Shown: in pieces, positions 5,796 through 42,735 of the stretch | Numbering within the stretch: the first letter of the stretch is position 1 | Layout of the letters: each line of letters opens with the position of its first letter | Origin: Escherichia phage vB_EcoM-RPN187 | Sequence record: OL770074.2 | Strand: one strand, 5' to 3' | Length of the DNA: 64,000 nucleotides | Notes under the pieces: model-generated | Seen by the model: only the letters and a program-made list of their open reading frames with translations | Told to the model about the DNA's origin: nothing | Databases searched by the model: none | Made by a program: the position numbers and the translations under genes

Positions 5796-6024
5796 TACAC
5801 GCTTCAGCCATTTTAAGAATAGAGCCAGGAGTATCGTTGTCCATTATATTAAAGCTAAATTCAATAGCCCAGTCAGTGCAGACATGAACTGCTTTAACTT
5901 CATTGCCTTCAACGCGTAATGGCTCAATCCAATACTTGATAGTGTTCTCGAATCCATCATCATCTTTAACGTCCATTTCAACTTCAAGCCTGAGTCCAGC
6001 ATTGTTAAATTCATCTAAAGTCAT
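5767..6024 (-). CDS. hypothetical protein (85 aa)
   Basis: ORF between 46 and 47, overlaps gene 47 stop; position of T4 46.1/46.2. Confidence 0.4.
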   Translation of the reverse strand: MTLDEFNNAGLRLEVEMDVKDDDGFENTIKYWIEPLRVEGNEVKAVHVCTDWAIEFSFNIMDNDTPGSILKMAEACIEDAYNDED

Positions 6025-7040
6025 TGTGTTGCCTCAATATAAAGTTCGTTGGAATATTTGACCAGCGCTTCTCTGTCTTCGTCTGAGATATCTGGAATCG
6101 CGTCAATATATTCTTTAATGATATCTTGAAGTGATTTAATCTCGATTTCCTGGTCGTCATCAGATTCAACACTGTTATCAACTTTAGAAACCATACGAAG
6201 AGAGTGAACTACTTTTTCAAGTTCAGATTCAAACTTAGTCAACTCTGAATCAATTTCTGATACTATAACACGTACGGCTAGATTAGTATAATCAGAATAA
6301 TTGATTTTGCCTTTAAACGGATAAGTGATTCGTCGATGCCATGTTGTTTCATTAGGAATAAATTCCATACGTTCAACATCGGTGTCAAATACCCAGAATC
6401 CTCGAGGGTCGTTTTCATCACCTGCAGTAAGGGTCCATGGTGTCCCAATATATTTGACGTTAGCAGCTTCAGAGATTGTGTGGAAGTGGCCGGACCAGAC
6501 TTGTTTATAGGTCTTTAAAAAATCAGGTTCAAGCCCATGAGACTTCATTCCTTTATAGAAATAAAAACCATTCAGTTCCCAGTGCCCAACACAATACGCG
6601 GCAGAAGAAGTCTTGATGTGCTCTAAGATTTCACCAGTATTTTCTTCGCACATCCAAGGAATTAAATCAATCAAACATCCGTCAAAATCTACTGTAGTAG
6701 GCTTATCATATACTTTAACATTAGGATATTTAGCTAAAAGCTCAGTAGAAGCGTTTGGAGTTAAAGTATTTTTAAAGTGCATATCATGGTTTCCTACAAC
6801 AGTATGTAGGGTAATACCAGCCTCATCAAGCATTTGAACTATTTCACGTGCGAACTCCATAGTTTTATGCGTGATTGCTTTTCGCACATCAAAAATATCG
6901 CCGTATTGAATCCATGTAGTAATTCCATTTTTCTTAGAATATTCTATCGCCTGCTTAATTCCATCCAACTGAATGGATTGAACCCACTCATCATCGGCTT
7001 TAACACCTAAATGCCAATCACCTAAATTTAAAATTTTCAT
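6021..7040 (-). CDS. 47: recombination endonuclease subunit gp47 (Mre11/SbcD-like)
   Basis: 339 aa; calcineurin-like phosphoesterase motifs (LGDWHLG, GDIFD, GNHD, GHWE, GHFH). Confidence 0.9.
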   Translation of the reverse strand: MKILNLGDWHLGVKADDEWVQSIQLDGIKQAIEYSKKNGITTWIQYGDIFDVRKAITHKTMEFAREIVQMLDEAGITLHTVVGNHDMHFKNTLTPNASTELLAKYPNVKVYDKPTTVDFDGCLIDLIPWMCEENTGEILEHIKTSSAAYCVGHWELNGFYFYKGMKSHGLEPDFLKTYKQVWSGHFHTISEAANVKYIGTPWTLTAGDENDPRGFWVFDTDVERMEFIPNETTWHRRITYPFKGKINYSDYTNLAVRVIVSEIDSELTKFESELEKVVHSLRMVSKVDNSVESDDDQEIEIKSLQDIIKEYIDAIPDISDEDREALVKYSNELYIEATQ

Positions 7041-7083
7041 ATTATTTCCTCATTAGTTAATTCATTCTATCATCCGTTTATAA

Positions 7084-7118
7084 AGCAAAAAAAAAAGGAA
7101 CTCCGAAGAGTTCCTATC
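7084..7118 (-). terminator. rho-independent terminator (GGAACTC-ttcg-GAGTTCC plus U-run)
   Basis: Minus strand reads GGAACTCTTCGGAGTTCC followed by TTTTTTTTTT; overlaps the stop of the 57-aa ORF and lies upstream of gene 47. Confidence 0.6.
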
Positions 7119-7287
7119 CACATAGTACACCGTACAGAGGCTCATTTGAACTTTTAAATCGAATGGGCTTGTATGTAATAGTTCCTTCGGCTTTAGCTTT
7201 ATCATAAGACTCTTTAAAACGTCTCATTCTTTCTGCTTTGCCTTTACGGATTTTATCGAAATTTTCAGAAGTCGGGATGTTCGTCAT
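7114..7287 (-). CDS. hypothetical small protein (57 aa, below the track cutoff)
   Basis: ATG at 7285-7287; MTNIPTSENFDKIRKGKAERMRRFKESYDKAKAEGTITYKPIRFKSSNEPLYGVLCG; stop inside the terminator hairpin. Confidence 0.3.
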   Translation of the reverse strand: MTNIPTSENFDKIRKGKAERMRRFKESYDKAKAEGTITYKPIRFKSSNEPLYGVLCG

Positions 7288-7326
7288 GCATAAGCACCTC
7301 TCAGAAAATGCCTAAATCGATTTCTC

Positions 7327-7548
7327 TCATCGTTTCCACCATTTCTTAACTTGAAATGAATCAACCCACACGAGTTGTTTTGGGTCTGCCTTTACAATAG
7401 GCGGACAAATTTCTGTAATAGAACCGTCGTGATATTCCTTTTCAGAGATTTTAACGCAAAGAGGACCTCCCAATTTAAGGGTGAACCCTGCGTTCAGCTT
7501 CAGACGTTTAAACTTTGTTTGAACTAGCGCCATTAATGATGTCCTCAA
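7327..7548 (-). CDS. hypothetical protein (73 aa)
   Basis: ORF on coding strand in the 47-55 spacer; start uncertain, overlaps next ORF. Confidence 0.3.
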   Translation of the reverse strand: MRTSLMALVQTKFKRLKLNAGFTLKLGGPLCVKISEKEYHDGSITEICPPIVKADPKQLVWVDSFQVKKWWKR

Positions 7549-7831
7549 TAGCCTGACGAGTAGTAACCCACTGGATTTTAATTAACTTGTCGTTATATGG
7601 TTGTCGTAGAATATCCCGAGATTTCTTAATAGCATATTCGTAAGCTTCGAAGTTGTTTTGAATTGCTGCTTCTTGAGCATGAGCATAAAGACGGTTTAGT
7701 TCAAAACGATTCTTTTTAAGAATCTTTTCGGATTTTTTACGTGCTTCAGCTTCATTTTTCTTTTGGATTTCTTGTAGCATTTTAGCTACTGCATCTTCTG
7801 CTTCTTTATTTTCAATAATCTCGGTAGTCAT
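7508..7831 (-). CDS. hypothetical protein (107 aa)
   Basis: ORF on coding strand in the 47-55 spacer. Confidence 0.4.
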   Translation of the reverse strand: MTTEIIENKEAEDAVAKMLQEIQKKNEAEARKKSEKILKKNRFELNRLYAHAQEAAIQNNFEAYEYAIKKSRDILRQPYNDKLIKIQWVTTRQAIEDIINGASSNKV

Positions 7832-7832
7832 A

Positions 7833-8126
7833 TTATCTCATTAAATTAAAATAAAAACGTCCATCCTCTTCAATACAGAACTCATACTCAACCGGAGTCC
7901 CATTTATCGAAAATGACACGTCATGTGGGTTCAAAGGGTCGATGTCAAAATTAATTTTAAATTCACGACCCAACAGTTTTACCAAATAAGGGATTGCTTC
8001 GTCAAAAGGTTCTTCTAAGTAGTTAGAGATGTCAATTGTCATCCTCATATAAAAAATCCAAACTAGGCGAATCGCTAACAACTTCCTTCTTTTCAGCCCC
8101 AGGAGCTTTATAAGCGGATTCTTCAT
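7833..8126 (-). CDS. hypothetical protein (start probably internal, about 70 aa)
   Basis: Track ORF overlaps the gp55 C-terminus; internal Met near 8042 gives a short overlap. Confidence 0.35.
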
Positions 8127-8589
8127 AATGCGTCATTTTATCGTAGATGTCTTGAATAAACGTTTCATCTACCAACGCTACCATATCATCGTCATGACTG
8201 TCGTAGACGTTATGAACGAAGTAACTATATTTCTTTGCAACTTCCTTACGTTCTTTTTTGATACGTTGGACAAAAGCATTAAAACAAGCTCGAGTTATGT
8301 ATGCATGTGGGTTATTGTACTTAGTTTCGTCGAAATTATGAAGTCCCTTAATAGAGGCTTCAATCCCATCTGCAATCATCTCCTGCTTCCAAGACTGGGT
8401 ATATCCTGAAAAGTTGAAACGTTTGGACAGGCCTTCAGCGATAAGCATAATTGCTAAACCGATGGTATCATTCTGACGAATAATTTTGTTTGGGTCTTTA
8501 TTATTTAAGAGCTCCTTTTTCCACTCGATTATAGCGGCGAGAAGCTCTTTATTATTCACATAGTTATTTTTAGGTTTTTGTTCAGTCAT
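8032..8589 (-). CDS. 55: late-transcription sigma factor gp55
   Basis: 185 aa; [24 protein letters not shown]...[53 protein letters not shown], close to recalled T4 gp55. Confidence 0.9.
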
Positions 8590-20902: not shown

Positions 20903-21904
20903 TTATTTCAGTAAAGTTACTTCAGAGATTTCTTCCCAACCATCTTTATCAGTTGAAATAAAATCTGCTACATAAAGAGCCGTACGTAATGATACATTGC
21001 GAAGACGAGATACGTTAGCCTTCATCCAGGACAATGCTTTATACGTTTCTGCATCGGTCAGACCACGTTTCTGCATCATGTCAGTAGATAATATTACATC
21101 TTCAACTCGAACCATAATCTCTTCATTAGAGTGTACTCCAAGGTCGAGATACACCGAACGAGATACTAAAGCTTGAAGGTGTGGGGCAAGTTTCGAACCG
21201 CGTTCTAACTCTTTATCGATATCAACGTTTGTAATGAAAACGATAGTACCTTCAAACTCAAATTCTTTATCAATACCCTTATCATCGAGATAAGATGACG
21301 CAGTGCTCCAGCAAACTTTGCGTTTATCTCCAGTATCTAATGCTGCTTTAAGAAGGTTCAAGATGTCCATATCTGAGAATACGTCAACGTCGTCGATTAA
21401 GAGAACGCTGTCTGCATCACGGTTGAGCCAAAGTTGTTCGTAAAGGCCAATACCGGAGATTTTACCATTAATGCTTTTGTATTTGATGAAACCATTATCA
21501 TTAGCGTTATTAAGTGCTTTATCCAGAGAATACGTCTTACCAATACCAGCTGCACCTGAAATAATGAGTGAACGAATTTTGCCATCGATAATGCCATTCG
21601 TCATCATGTTCATTACTTTAAAGCGTTTGTTGATACGAGTTTTCATATCTTCAGTGCTTTCAACAACTGCAACTGGTGATGTCTCAACTCCTTCCATTAC
21701 GATGTCTGATTTGAAGACCCATACTCCACGTTCAGAACCATCAATCATAACGAAAATTTTACCATCACCTAAGTGGGAACATTCAGGATTAAGCTTTGCC
21801 GGGAACCATGTCTTTGTGGCGACATAAGAACCAGAGATTTCGTTATTACGATAGATACCTTTTTTGATTTGAACGTTGAACATTTTATTCTCCAATTTAC
21901 TCAT
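20903..21904 (-). CDS. P-loop NTPase (333 aa)
   Basis: Walker A GAAGIGKT, Walker B VLLIDDVD; about 110-aa N-terminal domain ahead of the ATPase core. Confidence 0.55.
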   Translation of the reverse strand: MSKLENKMFNVQIKKGIYRNNEISGSYVATKTWFPAKLNPECSHLGDGKIFVMIDGSERGVWVFKSDIVMEGVETSPVAVVESTEDMKTRINKRFKVMNMMTNGIIDGKIRSLIISGAAGIGKTYSLDKALNNANDNGFIKYKSINGKISGIGLYEQLWLNRDADSVLLIDDVDVFSDMDILNLLKAALDTGDKRKVCWSTASSYLDDKGIDKEFEFEGTIVFITNVDIDKELERGSKLAPHLQALVSRSVYLDLGVHSNEEIMVRVEDVILSTDMMQKRGLTDAETYKALSWMKANVSRLRNVSLRTALYVADFISTDKDGWEEISEVTLLK

Positions 21905-21952: not shown

Positions 21953-22171
21953 TTATTTGCGACGAGATTTTTTGGTAAGAGGTTGAAAGAACACTGCTTT
22001 ACCTGCTGGGGTTAAGGTGACTCGTAACGCATTACCGATTCCCAAGGATGCTTTAACTAGACCTTTAGCTTTCAGTTCACCGAATGCTTGACGTTGGTCT
22101 GCATCACGAGTGTTAACCATAAGACCTTTATCACCAGCTTCACGAATCATTTCTAACATTTTGGTTTTCAT
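21953..22171 (-). CDS. hypothetical small basic protein (72 aa)
   Basis: ATG at 22169-22171 preceded by GAGGAGAA; MKTKMLEMIREAGDKGL... Confidence 0.4.
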   Translation of the reverse strand: MKTKMLEMIREAGDKGLMVNTRDADQRQAFGELKAKGLVKASLGIGNALRVTLTPAGKAVFFQPLTKKSRRK

Positions 22172-22199
22172 TTTGTTCTCCTCTTGTTTTGATAGGTCT

Positions 22200-22228
22200 A
22201 TAATAACATATCCTAAAAGCATGTACAC
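22200..22228 (-). promoter_or_regulatory. early promoter (GTGTAC-N17-TATTAT)
   Basis: Minus strand: GTGTACATGCTTTTAGGATATGTTATTATAGACC. Confidence 0.45.
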
Positions 22229-22251: not shown

Positions 22252-22280
22252 CCCCTAAAGGGACCCGAAGGTCCCCACAT
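22252..22280 (-). terminator. hairpin GGGACC-cgaa-GGTCCC downstream of the secreted-protein gene
   Basis: Perfect 6-bp GC stem with 4-nt loop immediately after the stop at 22281; weak U tract. Confidence 0.4.
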
Positions 22281-22562
22281 TTACTTATCACACTTAGCAA
22301 CATAATTAGGCATATCACAGAATACGGAGCGAGTAACTACTCGGCCCTTTGACCATGCTTCAGTTGCTTGTCCGGCTGTGCTATTGATATAGCTTGATCT
22401 AATGTTCTCAATACCCTGAGAATGTGATGCATTTACCGAACCATTAGAAGACCCAGAAGACTGGTTACCACCAGCTCCTGCGCTACCGCTGGCTGCACCC
22501 GTGGTAGCACCGACAGAGAATGCCATCATTACTGCGAATAAACCAATTACTAATTTTTTCAT
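22281..22562 (-). CDS. hypothetical secreted protein (93 aa)
   Basis: N-terminal signal-peptide-like MKKLVIGLFAVMMAFSVGA, then a Gly/Ser/Ala-rich linker and a C-terminal Cys pair. Confidence 0.45.
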   Translation of the reverse strand: MKKLVIGLFAVMMAFSVGATTGAASGSAGAGGNQSSGSSNGSVNASHSQGIENIRSSYINSTAGQATEAWSKGRVVTRSVFCDMPNYVAKCDK

Positions 22563-22593
22563 ATTTACCTCAAGTTAATGGTTATTTATCTAC

Positions 22594-23583
22594 TTATTTA
22601 TAGTAAGAATTATGATTTTCGAGATAGACTTGTTCAAGGAAGTCATCCCAGAAACTCATATCTACTTTTTGTCGCATACCGTTCTTGGCAGCTTGTTCTG
22701 ACGCATGTTCAACTTGGTCAACGATATCTTCTAGGAATTCTTGTACAGTTTTAAACGTATGTTTACCAAGCTTAACATCGAGAATAAATGGAGCATCCTG
22801 AAGTGGGTAAACCAGGTCGCCGGTTTTATAAATTTCTAATAGTTGAAGTCCACCACGACATGCATGACTCAATGCTTTCCAGTCAATACCTTCGTTAGCT
22901 TCTGCCTTACGAGCACGTTCACCATAGTTCTCTTCCAGTTTAACCAGGATGGCATTGAACTCTTTATTGGTTAATGTGTCTTGGAATTTACGGTCTAACA
23001 GATTATAGAATGTTTGCTTACCTGTTTTCTCGTTTTCAGTTTCAACCCACGAAGCAAATTCACCTACAGGCAGAACATTCTTCATATGTGATAAACGAAT
23101 TACTGCACCATTATCAAAGTATTGTCCCCATTCATTAGAACGTTTAAGGGCTTGACGAAGAACAGCCAGTCGAGAACCCTTGACACCGTATTTAGAAGCT
23201 TGCTTACGGACATACCCTAAATAAGATTTCATGTTAGTGGTATAGAAACGAGACCTGTTATCTTGAATATACTTCCATACATCAGGCAAATCAGATTTAA
23301 CTACTAAACTTGGTGGAGTGTGAAGCATATCTAATGCGACGGTTTCACCATCCGCCGCTAATTTAAAGAAATATTTGAGACTATACAACTCATGGTCCAC
23401 GTCGTCTTTTGTGTTCTTAGAAGATGTGTTATTCGTGTTCTTGCTCATGTGTTCTTTAACGTTACCTGTCAAGATGTCACGAGCATGAGGGACATAAATT
23501 TCTTTAAAATCGACGTCAGATTCAGGAGTAGACGTTCCGTAAAGGTGGCTACCAAAGTAGCCTTTCATAATTGTTTTCATCAT
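22594..23583 (-). CDS. nucleotidyltransferase-fold protein (329 aa), function unknown
   Basis: GSHLYGTSTPESDVDF (G-S-x10-D-x-D) and downstream VALDMLH fit the polymerase-beta-type minimal NTase signature; helical C-terminal half. Confidence 0.5.
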   Translation of the reverse strand: MMKTIMKGYFGSHLYGTSTPESDVDFKEIYVPHARDILTGNVKEHMSKNTNNTSSKNTKDDVDHELYSLKYFFKLAADGETVALDMLHTPPSLVVKSDLPDVWKYIQDNRSRFYTTNMKSYLGYVRKQASKYGVKGSRLAVLRQALKRSNEWGQYFDNGAVIRLSHMKNVLPVGEFASWVETENEKTGKQTFYNLLDRKFQDTLTNKEFNAILVKLEENYGERARKAEANEGIDWKALSHACRGGLQLLEIYKTGDLVYPLQDAPFILDVKLGKHTFKTVQEFLEDIVDQVEHASEQAAKNGMRQKVDMSFWDDFLEQVYLENHNSYYK

Positions 23584-24053
23584 TTAGCCTTATATTCAAG
23601 AGTAGGACAGATTTTTTCTTTACGAGCTTTAAGGTATTCACCTATTAATGATTTCTTACGTTCAATAGGTTCAAGTCCGTTTTTAATTCGTTCTTGGTTT
23701 TGCGCAATGAGCTCAATTTCTTTATAATATTTTCTGTCGTTATATTTGTCTAACAACCAAGACGGACCAATTACCAACCCGGTAGCAATAAAAGCCATGA
23801 CTGCTACCATTAAAATGCCTACACCAATTGAGGCCGGAACTAATGTCCATAGACTGCTAAAAACAAAGAATCTAGTTAAAATTTCCTGGCCAATGATTAC
23901 GACTGCTGCTAAAATAGCAAATCCGATAATTGAAACAGACAATACCGGGATTAACGTTTTCCAAAAATAAGCACACAACGTTTTCGGGCGATTCCATGTA
24001 CTATTGAACGCGGCATAAATTTTAAAGTGCCAAGAGTTTTCATTAATAATCAT
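23580..24053 (-). CDS. hypothetical membrane protein (157 aa)
   Basis: Three hydrophobic helices; basic C-terminal tail; 4-nt overlap with the NTase-like ORF. Confidence 0.45.
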   Translation of the reverse strand: MIINENSWHFKIYAAFNSTWNRPKTLCAYFWKTLIPVLSVSIIGFAILAAVVIIGQEILTRFFVFSSLWTLVPASIGVGILMVAVMAFIATGLVIGPSWLLDKYNDRKYYKEIELIAQNQERIKNGLEPIERKKSLIGEYLKARKEKICPTLEYKAK

Positions 24054-24062
24054 AATAATTCC

Positions 24063-24593
24063 TTATTTCAAAGTCGGGATAATAGAATCAAGATAAGCTT
24101 TAAGAGCAACTGCTTCATCTTTGTCTAATGTAATGATATGTTGACGAAGGTCATCAATTTGACGAATAACTACGACATCACCATCTTCATACGAAGGATT
24201 AACGCCTAAGACCGTTGTAGAGTCAGGGTTGGCCGGATTTGTAATAAAAGCATTACGGCATTTAGCCCATTGAAGTTTGGCCTTTTTGGCTGTTTCAGAT
24301 TCCACGAATTCTTTCACCTTAGTGACGAATGTTTTCCAATTATTAATAGAAAAACATTCGTCTTCAGTTTCGATATTAACCCCACTATAAAGTCCATGAT
24401 AAAAACGAACTTGAAGGTCTTCATTAATGTTAATTACAGATGCATGACCCGGTGGATTGAGTTTCAAAATCTTGTCCAGTTCCATAGGAAGAATAGTAGC
24501 AGCATCATCTTCTTGTGTCAGAACATACACATAACCACGTTTTTCGATACATAAATCACCAAACAACTCGGTTGTTTCAATTACAGTTTTCAT
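24063..24593 (-). CDS. hypothetical protein (about 176 aa)
   Basis: ATG at 24591-24593 (MKTVIETTELFGDL...); the track start is an upstream non-ATG codon. Confidence 0.45.
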   Translation of the reverse strand: MKTVIETTELFGDLCIEKRGYVYVLTQEDDAATILPMELDKILKLNPPGHASVININEDLQVRFYHGLYSGVNIETEDECFSINNWKTFVTKVKEFVESETAKKAKLQWAKCRNAFITNPANPDSTTVLGVNPSYEDGDVVVIRQIDDLRQHIITLDKDEAVALKAYLDSIIPTLK

Positions 24594-24594
24594 A

Positions 24595-24774
24595 TTATTC
24601 ACCAATTAAAGTTTCAACAAAATTCACCAAAGCATTCTGACAAGCATCAACCTGATTTTCATAAAAGCCTACATTATCATTTACCGCATGATAAGCTACA
24701 TCATTCAAATCTGAATCAGCTTCGCGCAAGTCACGAATAAGGTCCATCAATTTATTAGCTTGTTCACGGGTCAT
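24595..24774 (-). CDS. hypothetical small protein (59 aa, below the track cutoff)
   Basis: MTREQANKLMDLIRDLREADSDLNDVAYHAVNDNVGFYENQVDACQNALVNFVETLIGE; its stop TAA abuts the next ATG. Confidence 0.25.
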   Translation of the reverse strand: MTREQANKLMDLIRDLREADSDLNDVAYHAVNDNVGFYENQVDACQNALVNFVETLIGE

Positions 24775-41907: not shown

Positions 41908-41983
41908 TGGTCGAGGCAGTAGGGGTCGAACCTACGACCTAGGACTTAGAAGGTCCTTGCTCTTCCTTCTGAGCTATGCCTCG
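41908..41983 (-). tRNA. tRNA-Arg (anticodon UCU)
   Basis: Hand-folded cloverleaf: acceptor CGAGGCA/TGCCTCG, D-arm GCTC/GAGC, anticodon loop CUUCUAA, T-arm GTAGG-TTCGACC-CCTAC, encoded CCA. Confidence 0.8.
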
Positions 41984-41987
41984 GATT

Positions 41988-42062
41988 TGGCGGACATGCA
42001 TGGATTCGAACCATGGACCAATTGATTAACAGTCAACTGCTCTACCACTGAGCTACACATCC
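41988..42062 (-). tRNA. tRNA-Asn (anticodon GUU)
   Basis: Acceptor GGATGTG/CATGTCC (two G-U pairs), D-arm GCTC/GAGC, anticodon stem GTTGA/TCAAT with loop CUGUUAA, T-arm CATGG-TTCGAAT-CCATG, CCA. Confidence 0.7.
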
Positions 42063-42066
42063 AAAT

Positions 42067-42153
42067 TGGTTGGGAGTGATGGAGTCGAACCACCTGAGTC
42101 GCAATGACAATGGATTTACAGTCCACACCGCTACCTCTACGGGATAACTCCCC
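42067..42153 (-). tRNA. tRNA-Tyr (anticodon GUA), class II with long variable arm
   Basis: Anticodon loop CUGUAAA; T-arm GGTGG-TTCGACT-CCATC; CCA encoded; the acceptor stem pairs only with a mismatch or bulge, so the 5' boundary is uncertain. Confidence 0.55.
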
Positions 42154-42162
42154 AAATTAATT

Positions 42163-42237
42163 TGGTGGCCCTGGGTGGAATTGAACCACCATCTGGCGAT
42201 TATGAGTCGCTTGCTTGAACCTTCCAGCTACAGGGCC
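42163..42237 (-). tRNA. tRNA with anticodon CAU (Met or lysidine-type Ile)
   Basis: Acceptor GGCCCTG/CAGGGCC, anticodon loop CUCAUAA, T-arm GGTGG-TTCAATT-CCACC, CCA; occupies the T4 tRNA-Ile position. Confidence 0.7.
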
Positions 42238-42238
42238 T

Positions 42239-42314
42239 TGGTGCTGATTGACGGAATCGAACCACCGACCTTCTCATTACAAGTGAGTTGCTCTACCTAC
42301 TGAACTAAATCAGC
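42239..42314 (-). tRNA. tRNA-Thr (anticodon UGU)
   Basis: Acceptor GCTGATT/AATCAGC, D-arm GTTC/GAGC, anticodon loop CUUGUAA, CCA encoded. Confidence 0.75.
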
Positions 42315-42319
42315 AAAAC

Positions 42320-42410
42320 TGGCGGAGGCGATAGGATTTGAACCTATGAGTCGCCGGAGCGACTGCCGGTTTTCAAGACCGGTGCATTAAACCACTCTGC
42401 CACGCCTCCA
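42320..42410 (-). tRNA. tRNA-Ser (anticodon UGA), class II
   Basis: Acceptor GGAGGCG/CGCCTCC, anticodon stem CCGGT/ACCGG with loop CUUGAAA, long variable arm, 91 nt. Confidence 0.8.
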
Positions 42411-42411
42411 G

Positions 42412-42485
42412 TCTCCATACAAGGATTTGAACCTTGGACCTCCTGATCCCAAATCAGGCGCTCTACCAAACTGAGCTACACGGAG
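42412..42485 (-). tRNA. tRNA-Pro (anticodon UGG), CCA not encoded
   Basis: Acceptor CTCCGTG/TATGGAG, D-arm GCTC/GAGC, anticodon stem CCTGA/TCAGG with loop UUUGGGA, T-arm CAAGG-TTCAAAT-CCTTG; one nucleotide separates it from tRNA-Ser. Confidence 0.75.
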
Positions 42486-42495
42486 TAAATTAAAT

Positions 42496-42569
<74 letters not shown>

Positions 42570-42574
42570 AAATT

Positions 42575-42661
42575 TGGTGCGAGAAGTGGGACTCGAACCC
42601 ACAAGGAAATCATTCCGCAGCATTTTAAGTGCTGTGCCTTTACCAATTTGACCATTCTCGC
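42575..42661 (-). tRNA. tRNA-Leu (anticodon UAA), class II
   Basis: Acceptor GCGAGAA/TTCTCGC, anticodon stem CAGCA/TGCTG with loop CUUAAAA, variable arm GGAA-TGAT-TTCC, T-arm GTGGG-TTCGAGT-CCCAC, CCA. Confidence 0.8.
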
Positions 42662-42662
42662 G

Positions 42663-42735
42663 CTGGGAATAAAGGACTCGAACCTTTGCATCCTGGAATC
42701 AAAATCCAGTGCCTTACCAACTTGGCTAATTCCCA
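42663..42735 (-). tRNA. tRNA-Gln (anticodon UUG), CCA not encoded
   Basis: Acceptor TGGGAAT/ATTCCCA, D-arm GCC/GGC, anticodon stem CTGGA/TCCAG with loop UUUUGAU, T-arm AAAGG-TTCGAGT-CCTTT; one nucleotide from tRNA-Leu. Confidence 0.75.

Follow-up and report, generated by a model that had tools for sequence, protein, structure and literature searches.

A T4 NrdC.11 orthologue of the RlaP family in Escherichia phage vB_EcoM-RPN187 and its possible role in tRNA repair

We analysed a stretch of 64,000 nucleotides of Escherichia phage vB_EcoM-RPN187 (record OL770074.2; hereafter the window) and focused on a nucleotidyltransferase (NTase) gene with a membrane-protein gene on one side and a gene for a putative secreted protein on the other. 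By sequence comparison, the NTase open reading frame (ORF) of 329 amino acids (aa) (22594..23583; all window features given with coordinates in this text lie on the minus strand) is the Mosigvirus orthologue of T4 NrdC.11, a Pol-beta-superfamily NTase of the RlaP family (PF10127), and belongs to a 'long' phage-type subfamily. The gene is therefore already known, as T4 nrdC.11, and has been placed in the RlaP family in the literature, so that the locus is no new kind of system. The reading we favour, to which we give a probability of about 0.6, is that the phage RlaP would add one or two nucleoside monophosphates (NMPs) to damaged RNA 3' ends in the course of tRNA repair. The fold, the family, the conservation of the active site, the orthology to T4 and the linkage of relatives to repair operons are observations of the present analysis and are described below. 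The window itself was assigned by megablast to the genus Mosigvirus, i.e. the RB69/JS09/ST0 group of Straboviridae.

In Pfam the NTase scored 48.8 bits for PF10127 ('RlaP, RNA repair pathway DNA polymerase beta family'), whose gathering threshold is 23 bits (E 9.7e-13), and PHROG 388, annotated as 'nucleotidyltransferase', covered it end to end (E 1.7e-126), so that a chance occurrence of the motif is out of the question. The protein was 78% identical to T4 NrdC.11 (NP_049709.1, 336 aa) over its full length, carried the same motif and occupied the same place between nrdC.10 and mobD.1, two flanking genes that are conserved beside it as in T4. The T4 RefSeq record labels nrdC.11 'nucleotidyltransferase', and the gene had been placed in COG3541 as a nucleotidyltransferase already in 2006 (PMC1524935). 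The initial annotation, which was made from the window sequence, knew of no core T4 gene with this motif; given the orthology to the annotated nrdC.11, that statement was wrong. By tblastn, 1,540 phage records contained a homologue, which in 1,449 was close to full length and in several was named nrdC.11. When 1.84 billion cluster representatives were searched exhaustively, 3,215 clusters passed E <= 1e-3 and 742 passed the stricter limit of E <= 1e-30. Relatives with as little as 34% identity still belonged to the same family, as 85 out of 86 matched PF10127 and no other Pfam family. Many GenBank phage records call this nucleotidyltransferase, as well as other nrdC.x ORFs, 'thioredoxin', apparently an annotation error propagated from the nrdC.N gene names.

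The N-terminus of the NTase, MMKTIMKGYFGSHLYGTSTPESDVDF, contains G11-S12, ten residues and then D23-V-D25, corresponding to the hG[GS] and DxD motifs of the superfamily (codons at 23509..23553). These residues, which the initial annotation had pointed out, were invariant in the 86-87 diverged homologues of our conservation alignment (about 34% mean column identity). The complete set of invariant positions comprised G11, S12, G16, S22, D23, D25, Y132, K236 and R243, and at least 90% conservation was found for D61, D63, D85, K131, R138, H240 and others. A second acidic segment, D61-V-D63-H-E65 (23389..23403), falls on a predicted beta-strand (62-68). The motif VALDMLH, described earlier as an acidic strand, does exist at residues 82-88 (23320..23340) and includes the conserved D85, but it is predicted to be a helix and not a strand, residues 81-87 being helical in the AlphaFold2 model. 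Because the D61-E65 strand adjoins the DxD strand and ALDMLH is helical, the third catalytic carboxylate most likely lies in the D61/D63 segment, with D63 preferred over D85, if the canonical Pol-beta topology holds for the model.

The AlphaFold2 model, built without the T4 sequence row in the alignment, had a mean predicted local distance difference test score (pLDDT) of 94.3 and a predicted template-modelling score (pTM) of 0.83. An alpha/beta core at the N-terminus is followed by a long helix spanning residues 119-155 and by an insertion of three beta-strands (177-201); the C-terminal domain is helical and closes with a terminal helix (309-328). The core showed the alpha-beta-alpha-beta-alpha-beta-alpha arrangement and superposed on solved NTases, and all top 20 Foldseek matches were Pol-beta NTases, with weak global scores. 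The structure prediction that had been suggested as a check was thus positive for a Pol-beta NTase, and the polymerase-beta-type signature first read from the motif now agrees with PF10127, PHROG 388, the predicted fold and the conservation of the motif residues.

What RlaPs do is known from bacteria. The family PF10127 was named RlaP by Burroughs and Aravind on the basis of genes in RNA-ligase operons (as cited in PMC7824862 and PMC12776372), and the protein has been predicted to restore nucleotides ahead of ligation (PMC7824862). Two Pseudomonas RlaPs encoded between rtcB and rtcA were characterised in a preprint of December 2025: they labelled RNA but neither DNA nor protein, were most active with Mn2+, and added one or two NMPs (or dNMPs, the deoxy forms) to RNA 3'-OH ends with little specificity for the nucleoside triphosphate (NTP) (PMC12776372). 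Full-length tRNA-sized species in total RNA were also extended, the 5' half of a cleaved-tRNA mimic (broken in the anticodon loop) was preferred over the end of the 3' half, and RlaP partly rescued aminoacylation of a tRNA lacking one anticodon-loop nucleotide (PMC12776372). The authors proposed that RlaP counteracts ribotoxins like RloC that remove a nucleotide once they have cut, and they assigned T4 NrdC.11 to PF10127, in cluster 5 of their sequence similarity network (PMC12776372). The phage protein shares with the RlaPs of P. fluorescens and P. aeruginosa (rtcB-rlaP-rtcA operon) the PF10127 match, the hG[GS] and DxD motifs of the active site, to which a third D probably belongs, and the N-terminal NTase domain. 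The C-terminal helical domain and terminal helix predicted for it by the AlphaFold2 model would fit the description of the PfRlaP crystal structure, in which the terminal helix of the C-terminal helical domain packs back on the NTase domain (PMC12776372).

By analogy with these enzymes, D23, D25 and a third carboxylate, probably D63, would hold two divalent metal ions, and a broken RNA would receive one or two NMPs from NTPs at its 3'-OH. Such an activity is taken from the bacterial homologues, and we infer it for the phage enzyme, as we do its action against 'nucleotide-excising' ribotoxins. The most plausible substrate would be the 5' half of a tRNA short of one or more anticodon-loop nucleotides, which a RloC-type anticodon nuclease of the host, an enzyme that cuts and then trims, would have removed. 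The phage Pnkp and Rnl1/Rnl2, encoded elsewhere in the genome, would then heal and seal the ends to give a full-length tRNA. The NTase would thereby be an accessory counter-defence gene and presumably share the expression of the early/middle nrdC-tk gene block around it. The repair of tRNAs cut by anticodon nucleases has classically been studied in T4-type phages and, if the favoured reading is true, the restoration of excised anticodon nucleotides would be an extra step in the arms race between PrrC/RloC and Pnkp/Rnl. The T4 block from nrdC.11 to mobD.3 can be deleted (PMC9825161), and this dispensability fits an accessory counter-defence role.

Support for a link to RNA repair came from the cellular relatives. 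In a tblastn search against plasmids, the closest cellular relative of the NTase was found on the Asticcacaulis sp. DW145 plasmid pASDW145_1 (38% identity over 287 residues, E 4e-60), inside an RNA-repair operon (L039 1077-6790) that encodes Hen1 (PF12623), Pnkp (AAA_33 kinase, Metallophos and PNKP_ligase domains) and two tandem RlaP paralogues. One of these is the NrdC.11-type NTase, with 327 aa and the same partial PF10127 match (48.6 bits), and the other is a canonical RlaP of 269 aa with 236.5 bits to PF10127. A Deferribacter relative was found in a cluster headed by RtcB. From these two gene contexts it follows that members of the 'long' NrdC.11-type subfamily are themselves encoded within RNA-repair operons of bacteria, and the tandem arrangement suggests that the 'long' and canonical subfamilies have non-redundant roles. 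At the genome level, T4 RnlA homologues were present in 1,854 phage records with a genus distribution almost identical to that of NrdC.11 (636 RnlA and 627 NrdC.11 records for Escherichia, 287 and 286 for Klebsiella, 83 and 83 for Shigella, 69 and 69 for Acinetobacter), a co-occurrence that is not phylogenetically independent. Mosigviruses carry rnlA as well (67% identity to T4 RnlA), and in jumbo phages the distribution of RlaP mirrors that of RNA ligases (Iyer et al. 2021, PMC7824862). The repair-gene neighbourhood by which RlaPs were recognised was thus absent at the phage locus, as far as window ORFs of at least 240 aa are concerned, and present only indirectly, through the cellular relatives and the rnlA gene in the genome.

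Several observations weigh against a role in tRNA repair. The PF10127 match is limited to the N-terminal half of the NTase (residues 7-152). The phage-type proteins are about 60-80 aa longer than bacterial RlaPs, have a beta-hairpin insertion at about 177-201 and form a distinct 'long' subfamily, placed in network cluster 5 as opposed to cluster 1a for the bacterial enzymes (PMC12776372). In Asticcacaulis the 'long' type stands beside a canonical RlaP, and the jobs of the two may differ. The bacterial RlaP genes lie next to a ligase gene, whereas the phage gene does not: neither an RNA ligase nor Pnk was found among the window ORFs of at least 240 aa, and neither was found beside nrdC.11 in the T4 record. 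A search with the single protein and one with the 86-sequence profile gave no relevant PDB structure, in a PDB set that did not contain PfRlaP. Finally, the preprint labels T4 NrdC.11 'RlaP of unknown function'; the RlaP product is a 3'-OH end with a random nucleotide, functional in a fraction of molecules (PMC12776372), and the biological scenario for repair by RlaP is itself a proposal.

Three other readings of the NTase were weighed, and two of them, CCA addition and immune signalling, had been raised in the initial annotation together with nucleotide-sugar synthesis for DNA hypermodification, a role for which we found no support. The enzyme could complete or repair the CCA ends of the phage tRNA-Pro and tRNA-Gln, or restore CCA ends trimmed by host nucleases, as an analogue of CCA-adding enzymes. 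Ten tRNA genes (Arg, Asn, Tyr, Met, Thr, Ser, Pro, Gly, Leu and Gln) were located at 41908-42735, and tRNA-Pro and tRNA-Gln indeed lack an encoded 3' CCA, as had been noted before, the other eight encoding it (8 out of 10); no gap separates either of these two genes from the next tRNA, an arrangement also seen in the dimeric precursors of T4. The class II CCA-adding enzymes also belong to the Pol-beta superfamily and add nucleotides template-free at an RNA 3'-OH, and CCA addition is the nearest in spirit of the three roles proposed earlier, because the RlaP family acts on RNA 3' ends, with full-length tRNA-sized species among its substrates (PMC12776372). Against it, PF10127 was the only significant Pfam family: NTP_transf_2 stayed below its cutoff (E 0.12), and neither PolyA_pol (PF01743) nor another CCA-enzyme family was matched, the CCA-adding enzymes being a different family with a different architecture of accessory domains. 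Moreover, the T4 tRNAs without CCA reportedly rely on the host cca enzyme, a finding ascribed to Deutscher, Foulds and McClain in 1974, which also argues against a CCA-adding activity of the phage's own. The characterised RlaPs attach one or two nucleotides, are hardly specific for the NTP and not specific for CCA, and prefer the anticodon-loop break over the end of the 3' half (PMC12776372). We therefore regard the NTase as an RlaP and not a CCA-adding enzyme, and this reading as quite improbable.

It is still harder to see the NTase as modifying a substrate other than RNA, be it a small molecule or a protein such as a host factor to be inactivated, and we consider this very improbable. Aminoglycoside and lincosamide NTases modify small molecules, and MntA, DrrA and GlnE-type AMP-transferases modify proteins. 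The fold searches did return an NTase core with a helical domain like those of KNTase/ANT(4'), LinB, ANT(3'')(9), DrrA and GlnE, and the antibiotic NTases (1kny, 6p01 and LinB, 3jyy), with their NTase core and helical bundle, were the top Foldseek matches. This resemblance is generic: the template-modelling (TM) score to ANT(4')-type enzymes, which act on small molecules, was about 0.3, with 9% identity and no match to their sequence family. A local MntA-like match was weak (E 0.076; its 12.9 bits compare with a cutoff of 60) and no AbiEii Pfam match was obtained, so that an AbiEii/MenT toxin or an MNT antitoxin was rejected at the sequence level. In addition, the relatives of the NTase sit in repair operons, and bacterial RlaPs label RNA only (PMC12776372). 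Least probable of all, in our view, is that the NTase makes a nucleotide or oligonucleotide signal or decoy, either a CD-NTase-like messenger or, with the membrane protein, a HalB-like oligodeoxyadenylate in a Hailong-like pair. A fold match to HalB (PDB 9dbh/9dbj) and the architecture of the two genes were the sole pointers to such a pair. The identity to HalB was 16%, with no sequence-profile match; HalB has 217 aa, compared with 329 aa for the window NTase, and reportedly polymerises oligo-dA; and the membrane partner is unlike HalA. The PADLOC defence-system models matched neither the NTase nor the membrane protein nor the secreted protein, a blank result by which the CD-NTase, Hailong and toxin-NTase readings were rejected at the sequence level. 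CD-NTase signalling (cGAS/DncV-like, CBASS) was rejected at the fold level as well (Foldseek), as neither profile nor structure identified a CD-NTase, and the immune-signal role was not upheld; nor was a HalB/HalA pair recognised.

We also examined the layout of the locus. The three ORFs of the initial annotation, which had given no strand, were all recovered with the same coordinates on the minus strand. Upstream of the NTase gene lies the membrane-protein gene (157 aa, 23580..24053; PHROG 944, the RB69ORF104c family), and further upstream the orthologue of MobD.1 (y05I-like, 180 aa, 24063..24605; PF24449 and PF24448; 47% identity to T4 MobD.1). The stop codon of the membrane gene overlaps the NTase start in an ATGA at 23580..23583, read directly from the sequence, which is an arrangement typical of translational coupling and agrees with the coupling proposed earlier; the second in-frame ATG of the NTase, which is the start used in T4, also touches the TGA stop. 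Where the window has this membrane gene, T4 has mobD, a free-standing HNH homing endonuclease gene inserted between nrdC.11 and mobD.1 (PMC2988022), and no member of the membrane-protein family was found in the T4 nrdC-tk region. In RB32 the overlap of the membrane gene with nrdC.11 is identical to that in the window, and a remark in that record states that the gene 'replaces mobD'.

Homologues of the membrane protein were present in 1,106 phage records. The protein has no Pfam domain; it shows a continuous hydrophobic stretch at residues 29-102 by hydropathy, and C27, Y29, F30 and C149 were invariant in the family. The AlphaFold2 model (pLDDT 79.7) is a hairpin of two long helices with paired N- and C-terminal strands. 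A membrane protein is thus retained, but the three transmembrane segments assigned to it before are less likely than two, because the model has two long helices and both of its termini are paired. A search of the family profile against PDB and a Foldseek search of the model gave no match in PDB (best E 2.4), to HalA or to any other protein. In T4-like contigs the RlaP gene always lay 0-2.1 kb downstream of the membrane gene on the same strand, sometimes with 1-3 small ORFs between them. Given this steady linkage and the lack of a family member in the T4 nrdC-tk region, we regard the membrane gene as a neighbour that is conserved without being obligatory. In one 162-kb T4-like contig (L024; IMGVR_UViG_2706796796_000001, 6001-8250) the membrane gene is shortened to 122 aa, and a 255-aa ORF without a Pfam match lies between this remnant and the nrdC.10 homologue; no RlaP gene was found in the 12-kb locus, which indicates that nrdC.11 has been lost or displaced in some lineages.

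Outside the T4-like phages, the membrane family was found near repair genes in a few lineages that are unrelated to one another. In pakpunaviruses the gene is part of a split end-repair cassette of HD, metallophosphoesterase, membrane gene, Rnl1-type RNA ligase and AAA_33 P-loop kinase; a metagenomic phage encodes an Rnl2-type ligase 1.3 kb downstream of it, and in another lineage an ATP-dependent ligase is encoded two genes upstream. The membrane-family genes near repair genes are located at L005 3001-3408, L033 6001-6687, L031 1354-1824, L034 4604-5074 and L035 3662-4132. No repair-gene neighbour was found in nine lineages (ICP1, an Erwinia jumbo phage, L015, L016, L018, L025, L029, L032 and L037), so that about 4 out of 13 lineages were positive, counting RlaP in T4-like phages and against a background that is not phylogenetically controlled. 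Because of those nine lineages, the association between the membrane protein and repair is unproven and only suggestive. We consider it doubtful that PHROG 944 is an unrecognised accessory part of phage modules for RNA or nucleic-acid end repair; if it were, the membrane protein could tether or regulate repair at the membrane. Modest leads for work on tRNA repair are the membrane protein, as a conserved neighbour, and the bacterial Pnkp/Hen1 operon in which a 'long' and a canonical RlaP stand in tandem.

Downstream of the NTase gene the window differs from T4. In T4 and RB32, nrdC.10 is the ancestral immediate downstream neighbour of nrdC.11, and the gap between the two is 114 bp in T4, whereas in the window the 93-aa secreted ORF (22281..22562; PHROG 2243) and a small ORF are inserted there. 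The secreted ORF starts with a hydrophobic, signal-like segment at residues 1-24, as judged by hydropathy and in line with the signal peptide annotated before, and continues with a G/S/N-rich middle part and two C-terminal Cys. It was found in 102 phage records, essentially all of them Mosigvirus, compared with 1,540 for the NTase, and was absent from the T4 record. We read it as an independent gene that was inserted between nrdC.11 and nrdC.10 in this lineage and is functionally unrelated to the NTase. Of the two neighbours by which the initial annotation had framed the NTase, the membrane gene therefore stands as a conserved one in T4-like phages and the secreted ORF does not. A weak YbgS match of the secreted ORF stayed below the Pfam cutoff, and a host origin was rejected, as no DNA match was found in 5,426 E. 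coli genomes.

The sequence TATAAATA (22595..22602) matches the consensus of T4 late promoters; it shares positions with the NTase stop codon and is located 33 nt before the secreted ORF, and a GGGGACC-UUCG-GGUCCCU hairpin followed by U-rich sequence (22259..22276) lies just downstream of that ORF. The motif occurred in the window at chance level (9 observed, 8.0 expected) and the hairpin (-12.9 kcal/mol, z-score -0.77) did not differ significantly from shuffled sequences, so that a late promoter and a terminator of the secreted ORF are only hinted at. The nrdC.10 orthologue (333 aa, P-loop/AAA-type, 20903..21904; PHROG 1250) is 78% identical to T4 NrdC.10 and contains a Walker A motif (GAAGIGKT) and a Walker B-like motif (LLIDDVD), with weak AAA_22, AAA_16 and STAND matches. 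The small ORF between the secreted ORF and nrdC.10 (21953..22228) belongs to PHROG 6001, and since that match spans residues 20-87 only, translation probably begins at the ATG of residue 20 (nt 22171).

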